The translations under genes were made by a program, and so were the position numbers. Of a stretch of 64,000 nt of DNA, positions 2 to 2,098 are shown piece by piece (positions within the stretch are counted from its first letter, which is position 1; each line of letters begins with the position of its first letter). Under the pieces are notes generated by a model. The model had not been told where the DNA came from and did not search any database. It saw nothing but the letters and a program-made list of their open reading frames with translations. This DNA is from Elusimicrobiota bacterium (GTDB lineage Bacteria > Elusimicrobiota > Elusimicrobia > Elusimicrobiales > UBA9959): positions 25,507 through 89,506 of the forward strand of contig WOVA01000016.1 of assembly GCA_009773155.1 (NCBI GenBank), given 5' to 3'.

Positions 2-2020
2 CGGCATGAGCGGCTCTATTATGTCCTGGACAGGCCGGAGCTCACCGACGCCGAGTTCGACGGCCTCATGCGCCGCCTGCGCGAGCTGGAGGCTTCCTTC
101 CCGCAGTACGCCTCCGAAGATTCCCCTGCCCGCCGCGTCGGCGGGGAACGCTCCAACACCTTCGCCCCGGTGCCGCACAAGGTGCCGATGCTTTCCCTCG
201 ATAACTGCTATTCGGCGGAAGAATTCCTGGAATGGAATGAGCGCGTTAAAAAGGCCCTGGGCGCGGAACCTTATGAGCTGGCCGTGGAGGCCAAGATCGA
301 CGGCCTGTCCTGCTCCATCGAATACGCCGGCGGGCGGCTGGTCCGCGCCTCCACGCGCGGCGACGGCGAGACCGGCGAGGACGTGACGCTCAACGTGCGG
401 ACCATAGGCGCCGTGCCCCTGGCCCTGCCGACCGGCGATGGCACCGGCGCCTCCGCCGCCGCTCCGGACGACTTCGAGGTGCGCGGCGAAGTGTACATGG
501 ATAAGGCCGACTTCGAGGTCCTGGTCGGGGAAGCGCTCGCGGCCGCCAAAAAGGAGCCCGCTAAAAAGGAGAGATCACTGCCGGTCAATCCGCGTAACGC
601 CGCGGCCGGCTCGCTGCGCCAGAAGGACCCGGCCGTCACGGCGCGGCGGAGGCTTAAGTTCTTCGCCCATTCCTACGGTCATCTGGCCGCCGGGGCCGAG
701 CCGGCCTCGCACTGGGACTACCTGGAGCGCTGCCGCGAACTGGGCTTCCCCGTCTCGTCGGTGAGGAAGCTCTGCGCCGCCGCGGCGGAAGTGGTGGATT
801 TTTACAAGGCTCACGCCGAGAAGCGTTTTTCGCTCCCCTACGAGATAGACGGCCTGGTAGTGAAAGTGAATTCCCTCAAGCAGCAGAAGCGCCTGGGCTT
901 CACGGCCAGGAGCCCCCGGTGGGCCATAGCCTTCAAGTATCCCGCGCAGCAGGCCGTCACGCGCGTGCTGGGCGTGGAGTTCTCCGTCGGCCGCACCGGC
1001 GCCGTCACTCCGGTAGCGCGGCTGGAGCCCGTCAAATGCGGCGGCGTCACCATCGCCAGCGCCACGCTGCACAATTTCGACGAGATAGTCCGCCTGGGTC
1101 TCAGGGCCGGCGACAAGGTGGTCATAGAACGCGCCGGGGAGGTTATCCCCAAGGTGGTGCGCGCGGACGCCTCCGCCCGGAACGGCTCGGAGAAAGAGAT
1201 CGTTCCTCCCAAGGCCTGTCCCTCCTGTTCCTCCGAGCTTTTCCGCGACGAGGAGGAGGTCGCGCTGCGCTGCGTGAACCCCTCCTGCCCCGCCCAGCTG
1301 CGCCGCTCGCTGCTGCATTTCGCCTCGCGCGACGCCATGCGCATAGAGGGTCTGGGCGAGTCCTCCGTGGACCAGCTGCTGGCGAAAGGCCTGCTTAAGA
1401 ACTTTCCCGATATTTACCGTCTTAAAAAAGAAGACCTGCTGGCGCTGGAGCTGTTCAAGGACAAGAAGGCGGAAAACCTGCTGGCGGAAATCGCCAGGAG
1501 TAAGGAACAGCCCTTGTCCCGGCTTATCTACGCGCTCGGCGTACGCCATATCGGAGAGAAGAGCGGCCGGGTCCTGGCGGAGCACTTTAAGACCATGAAG
1601 GCCTTCATGTCCGCGGGTACGGAGGAACTGGCTAAGGTCCCGGACGTGGGCCCCGTGGTCGCCGAAGTTATAGCGGAATTTTTAAAGTCGGCGGCGACGC
1701 GCGCCATGATAGGGGAGCTGGAGGCGCTGGGCCTGCGCATGGACGAGCCGGCGCGGGCTTCTTCGGGCGGACGGCTGGAAGGCAAAACATTCGTTTTTAC
1801 CGGTGAGCTGAAGTCGATGCCGCGCTCCGAGGCGCAGGCGAAGGTGCGCGAGCTGGGGGGGAAGGAGACCTCGTCGGTCTCCGCCAAGACCTCCTACGTC
1901 GTGGCCGGCGCCGATCCCGGCTCCAAGCTGGCCAAGGCCCTAAAACTCGGCGTCAAAGTCCTCACCGAATCGGAATTTCTGGAACTTATCGGGGACGTTG
2001 AGGCAGGGGACGTTGTTTAG
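2..2020 (+). CDS. ligA: NAD-dependent DNA ligase LigA (5-prime partial, N-terminus lies left of window)
   Basis: Frame of ORF 68..2020 stays open back to nt 2 ([22 protein letters not shown]). The KIDGLS adenylation motif, the Cys4 zinc finger (CPSC...CVNPSCPAQ), HhH repeats and a C-terminal BRCT ([10 protein letters not shown]) are all visible. Confidence 0.95.
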
Positions 2021-2098
2021 TTCTTTAGTTTTCGACCCTCCAGAGACCCCTATTAAGCCCCTAAAACAGCGAAAACTAAAGAACTAAACAACGTCCCC
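2006..2098. repeat. Long-hairpin palindromic element, copy 1 (29-bp perfect arms 2006-2034 / 2070-2098, 35-nt loop)
   Basis: ggggacgttgtttagttctttagttttcg ... cgaaaactaaagaactaaacaacgtcccc. The left arm contains the last codons and the TAG stop of ligA. A second copy lies at 37976..38066. Confidence 0.85.

Follow-up and report, generated by a model that had tools for sequence, protein, structure and literature searches.

A long hairpin occurs twice in the stretch of DNA analysed here, a 64,000-nucleotide window of contig WOVA01000016.1 from an Elusimicrobiota bacterium (assembly GCA_009773155.1, positions 25,507 to 89,506 of the forward strand). Copy 1 covers the end of ligA and copy 2 lies beside a tRNA-Lys gene. 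The hairpin is very likely a head-to-head dimer of the terminal inverted repeats (TIRs) of a Y1/HUH transposase gene of the TIRYT type, i.e. a miniature, non-autonomous relative of a TIRtron with a REPIN-like build. RAYT-like genes with long TIRs were named TIRYTs, and the gene together with its repeats a TIRtron, by Di Nocera et al. (2013; PMC3733652). The element was classed as a TIRYT-associated TIR dimer and an analogue of REPINs because two REPIN features, a palindrome with GTAG and a score above the RAYT cut-off, are lacking. The hairpin family is new, but it belongs to a known type of transposase-linked repeat; it is neither a new RNA nor a free-standing structured RNA.

The two copies were delimited as follows.

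2006..2098: copy 1, TIR-dimer hairpin; left arm 2006-2034, loop 2035-2069, right arm 2070-2098; C:G pair at arm position 18.

37975..38067 (core 37976-38066): copy 2, TIR-dimer hairpin; arms 37975-38003 and 38039-38067; G:C pair at arm position 18.

Both are 93 nt long and consist of 29-nt arms, 100% complementary, around a 35-nt loop. Two long hairpins with perfect arms and equal loops had been described at these places by a first, sequence-only reading of the window, as had the C/G swap that preserves pairing in both copies: the arms of copies 1 and 2 differ solely at position 18 (C versus G), and the difference is mirrored in the partner arm. The 28-nt arm pattern matched the window four times (0.00 matches expected from shuffled sequences), and a fuzzy search allowing up to five substitutions per 25-nt arm added no copy in the window. 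The stem is A+T-rich. Folded as single-stranded DNA, copy 1 reached -30.4 kcal/mol (z = -12.6 against shuffles) and copy 2, whose loop holds a small internal hairpin, -40.5 kcal/mol (z = -11.0 against shuffles). The sequence of copy 1 was unchanged in two other assemblies (three independent assemblies in all). The bases downstream of the copies are ACCGAC and ACTGAT; the shared ACYGA that had been noted at the 3' side of the element is not a feature of the family, no flank consensus being found across 76 element ends. The loops, which had been called unrelated, are so between the two window copies, but across genomes they form related subgroups.

Further copies were retrieved by scanning species-representative genomes once for GGGGACGTTGTTTAGTTNTTTAG. 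One exact match to 22 bases of an arm was needed, and the second arm and positions 24-29 were left free. This arm search returned dozens of copies outside the window and placed them in relatives: the pattern was found at 39 loci (numbered below with the prefix L) in six other Elusimicrobia metagenome-assembled genomes (MAGs), which makes at least seven genomes with that of the window. From the 39 loci and the window, 32 paired elements were extracted; solo arms were also present. Most of the paired elements (22/32) measure 91-95 nt, with minor classes at 52-53, 59-60, 83 and 100-103 nt. Arm positions 1-25 are near-invariant among copies, the flanks are without any pairing and the element boundaries lie exactly at GGGG…CCCC. 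The loops are highly diverse yet fall into subgroups, that of copy 1 resembling the loops of L021, L036 and L020. When the fuzzy search was run on the window and L001-L039, one divergent copy was added, at position 7892 of L001. The gene context varies between copies. Neither target-site duplications nor direct repeats in the flanks were detected at element ends, and an insertion-target motif was unsupported at the 76 ends.

In at least four other genomes, single inverted arms flank a Y1/HUH transposase of about 310-320 aa. The uninterrupted form of this unit (L123, 1092..2141, 1050 bp) consists of an arm, 110 nt, the gene and a second arm that overlaps the stop codon. Its enzyme is 84% identical to the 320-aa protein of L024, whose gene lies with a group II intron between arms at 2690 and 5612, a distance of 2.9 kb. 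Loci L038 and L006 form one unit of about 1034 bp, L006 continuing the L038 contig with the start codon and the second arm. A homologue of the gene with one arm was found at contig ends in both L017 and L032, and TIRs also bound the gene in L124, L125, L129 and L131. No DDE gene was found between the arms; the Y1/HUH enzyme is the only gene found there. As a side observation, the group II intron of L024 (TamC13-45 MAG, about 3700-5560) lies between the transposase gene and its 5'-side arm and contains an open reading frame for a 458-aa reverse transcriptase (3764..5140, minus strand); the L123 unit is without the intron.

The L024 protein matched the Pfam family Y1_Tnp (E = 1.9e-8). The C-terminal Bac_DnaA_C signal was weak (E = 0.011 and 2e-4, below the gathering score); many homologues have precomputed PF08299 and PF01797 domains, and the alignment shows conservation of a block at the C-terminus. 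Across 12 homologues there was no variation in the NHFH (HUH) and Y..LNPLRA (tyrosine) motifs. The protein search gave 2365 matches at E ≤ 1e-20, and many homologues lie on contigs of just 1.0-1.4 kb, a size that would follow from assembly breaks at the repeated ends. Matches to solved structures were weak (E = 0.2-0.6) and concerned IS200-type and ISDra2-type transposases (2ec2, 2xm3); REP-associated enzyme chains were not recovered by sequence search of solved structures. Eight of 24 loops resembled the subterminal sequence of the transposase unit at p < 0.05. Against the interior of that unit, the loop of copy 1 was not significant (p = 0.38) and that of copy 2 borderline (p = 0.06).

A canonical DnaA box TTATCCACA (or a fit to TTWTNCACA) was observed directly inside the 5'-side arm in L024 (5575-5590) and L123 (1117-1126), and a box also occurs at the arm/loop junctions of L026, L013, L016 and L012; other TIRtron types are without it. 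No enrichment is claimed because these cases share ancestry.

The arm, GGGGACGTTGTTTAGTTCTTTAGTTTTC, lacks self-complementarity and needs its partner arm to fold. It starts with a conserved terminus, GGGGACGTT, after which come the direct units GTTTAGTT and NTTTAGTT of 8 nt each. This build is common to related units, in which GGGGACG(T/C)T precedes a pair of direct 8-nt units whose sequence differs between lineages. Seven further Elusimicrobia units have the same end build, and those tabulated are listed here with the window family.

Window family: unit 1 GTTTAGTT, unit 2 CTTTAGTT.

L131: unit 1 GTTGAGTT, unit 2 GTTGAGTT.

L129: unit 1 GTTGAGTT, unit 2 GTTGACTT.

L130: unit 1 GTTGACTA, unit 2 TTTGACTA.

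L124: unit 1 GCTTAAAC, unit 2 GCTTAAAT.

L125: unit 1 CTTGAAAG, unit 2 ATTGAAAC.

L127: unit 1 GATGAATA, unit 2 AATGAATT.

In a Desulfuromusa unit (L132) the two 8-nt units are not clearly visible. Position 18, where the window copies differ, opens the second 8-nt unit, and no other place in the arm is so poorly conserved. Each of the four bases was seen there: C in most arms, G in window copy 2, L019, L030, L038 and the copy at L001 7892, A in L017 and T in L006, L032 and L035. Even the arms that flank one gene can disagree at this position (L038 G, L006 T). Because it is shared by several loci, G at position 18 is an old shared allele and not a new compensatory event in this genome. The compensatory C/G change of the sequence-only reading is therefore real as a mirrored pair, but it represents a subfamily allele at an unconstrained base and not a genome-specific event.

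Pairing was then quantified on the 24 long copies from seven genomes, in which 97.3% of stem cells are paired. Stem positions 18, 26, 28 and 29 vary on both sides; at position 28, for instance, 10 copies have T:A and 9 have C:G. None of the shuffles gave a covariation score as high as that observed, and sliding the partner arm by 1-3 columns lowered pairing to 40-56%. The covariation is not an artefact of retrieval because positions 24-29 and the second arm were unconstrained by the search pattern. Additional copies with non-compensated arm changes had been named beforehand as an observation that would count against a hairpin under selection; three were found (L013 C·A, L034 G·T, L001 T·G), and most stems are paired.

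Seven sets of elements occupy matching genomic sites in different species, as judged from flanks that are 76-91% identical along kilobases of sequence. In six orthologous pairs, the arms are identical at 299/300 positions, the loops at 67% in their best orientation and the 150-nt flanks at 73%. The loop is inverted relative to the flanks in L025 versus L008/L018 (score 10-11 inverted and 1 in the same orientation, null maximum 3-7) and in L027 versus L033 (score 5 inverted and -5 in the same orientation, null maximum 2); in a third set, L016/L026, a common 11-nt motif stands beside opposite arms, which is motif evidence for a flip. At one orthologous site, a 53-nt TTTAG-type element in L022 faces a 91-nt TTGAG-type element, the copy at L001 7892, which carries three changes, each present in both arms. 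Judging from these alignments, elements at a site flip and can be replaced or rewritten, which resembles the REPINs 'overwritten' at conserved sites that are described in the REPORTH preprint. Flipping of the loop implies arm-to-arm recombination or re-insertion, either of which would copy changes between arms, and arm-to-arm exchange would in turn keep the arms complementary without selection on a cruciform or an RNA. The selection on a DNA cruciform or RNA that the first reading had deduced from the paired change is thus retained in part: pairing is kept beyond what recent copying would give, but the arms are TIRs of a transposase and can be maintained without such selection. Candidate causes of the in-place identity of the arms are selection, enzyme-mediated rewriting and gene conversion.

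A mechanism can be proposed for such a TIR dimer, with steps modelled on RAYT and IS200/IS608 biochemistry. The loop of about 35 nt would be a remnant of the interior of the parent unit, drifting freely. The arms would pair in single-stranded DNA at the replication fork to form a duplex with the two 8-nt units, which the C-terminal helix-turn-helix domain of the transposase would bind. The Y1 domain would cut and rejoin at the GGGGAC boundary, so that copies are moved, re-inserted or 'overwritten'. Arm-to-arm exchange would keep the arms complementary and could explain the C:G versus G:C pair. As the element is symmetric, it would present the same ends on both strands, so that either strand could be processed, which fits both loop orientations.

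Several points weigh against the assignment to a TIRYT gene. TIRYT enzymes are not known from experiments to bind their repeats, to cut them or to move them. No transposase homologue was found in the 64-kb window by tblastn with the L024 enzyme, and the score against the NCBIfam model REP_Tyr_transpos (NF047646) was 66.5 bits, below the RAYT cut-off of 80. Retrieval by exact match inflates the apparent conservation of the arms, and arm identity at orthologous sites suits in-place selection or overwriting better than selfish copying and decay. The Elusimicrobia arm differs from a REP in that it is not a palindrome by itself and has no GTAG tag. The TIRs of TIRtrons share GGGGWSAS and occur as moderately abundant singles, dimers and clusters (PMC3733652); the arm terminus GGGGACGT fits 6/8 of this motif (GGGGWS yes, AS no).

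A tentative extension of the assignment is that the hairpins are maintained partner sites of a domesticated protein with Y1 and DnaA-C-like domains, and not decaying selfish copies. The protein or host selection would then hold the arms letter-perfect in place while the species diverge. The 8-nt units would be the protein binding sites, the loop would drift and be flipped repeatedly by arm exchange, and, together with them, the DnaA box TTATCCACA that lies beside the 5' arm in this lineage could tie the system to the replication fork. If this were true, the idea of the REPIN as a vertically inherited genomic partner would extend to a second enzyme class in a distant phylum, and the unexplained DnaA-C-like domain would gain a concrete DNA target.

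An explanation that must be set against the TIR dimer is a structural element, RNA or DNA cruciform, selected by the host and kept for a local role, the link with a transposase being merely historical. Roles that could be considered are stabilisation or processing of the ligA-purH mRNA, a pre-tRNA leader structure and a protein-binding site; such roles are reported for REPs (PMC3733652, abstract). Such an element would account for orthologous arms that are identical across species while loops and flanks diverge, for pairing kept with covariation at four positions and for copies placed in tight gene junctions; among the three uncompensated arm changes, two are of the G·T kind, which RNA would tolerate. 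It is nevertheless unlikely. A strand-specific RNA role is improbable because the element is symmetric and its loop is found in opposite orientations in orthologues. The hairpin is not followed by a T-run or a terminator-like site on either of the two strands, unlike an intrinsic terminator, and scans for promoters and terminators around copies 1 and 2 gave no sites on either strand. At the gathering threshold Rfam 15 returned tRNAs only, and at a relaxed threshold eukaryotic miRNA-precursor models alone (17-34 bits against cut-offs of 50-180), which are generic long-hairpin noise. The gene context is not constant across copies, the ligA-purH site of relatives is empty or holds unrelated insertions, and the same sequence is the terminal repeat of a transposase gene.

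Far less probable still is an ordinary miniature inverted-repeat transposable element (MITE), i.e. an insertion sequence shortened by deletion and mobilised by a DDE transposase that reads double-stranded TIRs. The perfect TIRs, the small size, the many dispersed copies and the loops derived in some cases from the parent interior would be in keeping with a MITE, but not the missing target-site duplication and flank consensus at 76 ends, the boundaries exactly at GGGG…CCCC with unpaired flanks, or a Y1/HUH enzyme as the sole gene between the arms, where a DDE gene is absent. Chance similarity, a single recent duplication within the genome or a CRISPR-like spacer array, suggested by just two copies in the window and by 28-nt repeats and inserts of about 35 nt that match CRISPR dimensions, has a negligible probability given zero expected chance matches, dozens of copies in six other genomes, loops related between copies and to the transposase unit, repeats that are inverted, not direct, and always form one pair, and an arm without any copy in viral contigs. 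The CRISPR-like array was ruled out by the inverted repeats and the loops related between copies.

The site of copy 1 was analysed with the following features.

68..2020, plus strand: ligA open reading frame; its last four codons and TAG stop (GDVV*) are inside the left arm of copy 1.

1991..2000, plus strand: partial copy of the terminal 10 nt of the element (GGGGACGTTG), separated from copy 1 by a 5-nt gap.

2105..3586, plus strand: purH; its start codon is 6 nt past the right arm of copy 1.

The TAG stop of ligA occupies 2018-2020, so that copy 1 does supply it, as the sequence-only reading had claimed. The upstream duplicate it had pointed to was also found again at 1991-2000. This partial copy, which begins 15 nt before copy 1, accounts for the first 'GDV' in the tail of ligA and is the sole such case among the 76 element ends; it is possibly a remnant of an earlier arm or of an excision. 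The junctions of relatives were drawn from metagenomes. Two of them are element-free: in L041 the ligA TGA is followed after 3 nt by the purH ATG, and in L104 the genes are 15 nt apart. Ligases of relatives end in …KLLG*, …KLLE* or …KLVSGK*. A comparison of C-termini, also suggested at the outset, showed the window protein to be extended by about 7-8 residues, which the element and the partial arm account for. The element with the partial arm copy thus lengthened ligA by these residues and gave it its stop codon. The window element is a passenger that replaced the end of ligA with a GDVV* tail and parted ligA from purH. The odd end of ligA is explained in this way as the footprint of a mobile element, which rewrote the C-terminus and split a once-tight junction.

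Other insertions were observed at the ligA-purH junction. Those of L040, L070, L118, L042 and L043 are unrelated hairpins or tandem repeats: long hairpins with the common core TTTGGGGAA…GGAACCGCGCAACGGTTCCCTGC in L040 (4890-5040) and L070 (4900-5040), a block of multiple hairpins in L118 (4890-5140) and a tandem array of a 22-nt unit in L043 (2450-2640). Because several relatives hold such unrelated insertions, the junction is regarded as a tolerant hot spot for structured repeats. A fusion like that of ligA was also seen elsewhere: in L023 (2400-2442) a solo arm is fused in frame to the upstream gene and gives a GDVV* tail as in the window ligA; the orthologous L030 (2350-2430) has a complete 59-nt element and retains its own TAA. 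Each arm contains stop codons in two frames and the whole element in all three.

Copy 2 lies directly upstream of the 5' end of the following gene.

37898..37971, minus strand: tRNA-Lys(ttt).

The upstream placement given by the first reading needs one correction: the tRNA is encoded on the minus strand, so that copy 2 is 3-4 nt upstream of its 5' end. No sigma-70-like promoter was detected between copy 2 and tRNA-Lys or beyond, and no orthologues of this site were present among the fetched loci.

Other repeats of the window were recorded as follows.

62862..62954: third long hairpin, 93 nt; arms CAATTGGGGACACAATACCTATTTC (25 bp; core GGGGACACAATACCTATTTC) and a 43-nt loop.

11335..11392: short self-complementary repeat, GGGGACACCATGC(CG)GCATGGTGTCCCC, in two neighbouring copies.

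14572-14599, 20471-20498, 29618-29645, 36472-36499, 48254-48281 and 50542-50569: other window copies of the short self-complementary repeat.

The third hairpin sits 50 nt downstream of tRNA-Pro(ggg). Its arm (from 62867) begins with GGGGACAC, a full fit to GGGGWSAS as defined in PMC3733652. No copies of it were found in the fetched loci, and it is probably a sister family of TIR dimers. The short repeat (11335- and others) also begins with GGGGACAC and fits the motif fully. It has eight window copies with GGGGAC…GTCCCC ends, often preceded by GGTAC, and was found as well in the Elusimicrobia MAG loci L024, L026, L031 and L034. It looks like a second, palindromic TIR/REP-like family with the shared GGGGAC end. 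The tRNA-Pro(ggg) gene itself (63004-63075, minus strand) lies within an inverted repeat of 22 nt (62990-63011 with 63069-63090, 95% complementary), through which the acceptor stem reaches about 14 bp further into the flank on each side. A perfect 38-nt palindrome at 3599-3636 (AAATAAAAAGAGCCGCGGCG / CGCCGCGGCTCTTTTTATTT), between the convergent purH and aminotransferase genes, looks like an ordinary bidirectional terminator.

For perfect 'compensatory' hairpins near genes, these results recommend checking for a link with a transposase before a regulatory RNA is called. The family also provides a clean TIRYT set, with a 25-nt arm, a conserved GGGGACGTT terminus, two 8-nt units and one free position, as well as variants that exist naturally in sister lineages and orthologues whose loops are flipped. 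With such a set, it could be learned what is recognised by the Y1 and DnaA-C-like domains, and whether the repeats are maintained or merely tolerated.

Among known systems, the IS200/IS605 elements (IS608, ISDra2) resemble the Elusimicrobia element by the Y1/HUH core, the lack of target-site duplication and the expected single-strand, hairpin-guided chemistry. Their left and right subterminal hairpins differ and are not identical terminal inverted repeats, and they use defined target tetra- or pentanucleotides. No such target was seen at the 76 ends of the Elusimicrobia element.

The known REPIN systems are mainly those of Gammaproteobacteria. A REPIN is an inverted doublet that folds into a hairpin around a spacer of lower conservation; both length and pairing are important in REPINs, and compensatory changes are frequent (Bertels and Rainey, 2011; PMC3116915). 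The Elusimicrobia dimer shares with it two inverted conserved ends, a less conserved spacer of fixed length and a long hairpin (PMC3116915), compensatory changes in the stem and a Y1 transposase flanked by the repeat, as well as conserved extragenic sites with possible 'overwriting' (REPORTH preprint). It differs in that its arm is not a REP: GTAG is absent, and a CGTC tetranucleotide does occur near the end of the arm, but REPs of the CGTC type have stems of 8-9 bp (PMC3733652). The enzyme differs from RAYTs in being longer, with a DnaA-C-like domain, and in scoring below the NCBIfam RAYT cut-off.

The closest likeness is with TIRtrons. Common to both are a RAYT-like Y1/HUH gene for about 310-330 aa whose product has a DnaA-C/HTH-like region at the C-terminus, flanking terminal inverted repeats of great length starting with GGGG[AT][CG], the 3' repeat overlapping the gene end, and repeats dispersed in moderate numbers as singles and head-to-head dimers. 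According to Quentin et al. (2018; PMC6006769), most TIRYT-type enzymes fall in subclass 2.1, with Bac_DnaA_C or HTH C-terminal domains, and the repeat consensus is unlike a DnaA box. The Elusimicrobia family differs in an arm made of a terminus and two 8-nt direct units, in the length mode of its dimers (91-95 nt) and in its phylum, Elusimicrobia having zero mentions in the main texts of PMC3733652 and PMC6006769; persistence across species with flipped loops was not found in the passages of these papers that were consulted. Conserved ends, a drifting spacer of fixed length and compensatory changes are already documented for REPINs (PMC3116915). What is new here is the sub-structure of the arm, its cross-species persistence, the flipping of the loop, a possible link with DnaA boxes and the finding that some ligA-purH junctions are empty.

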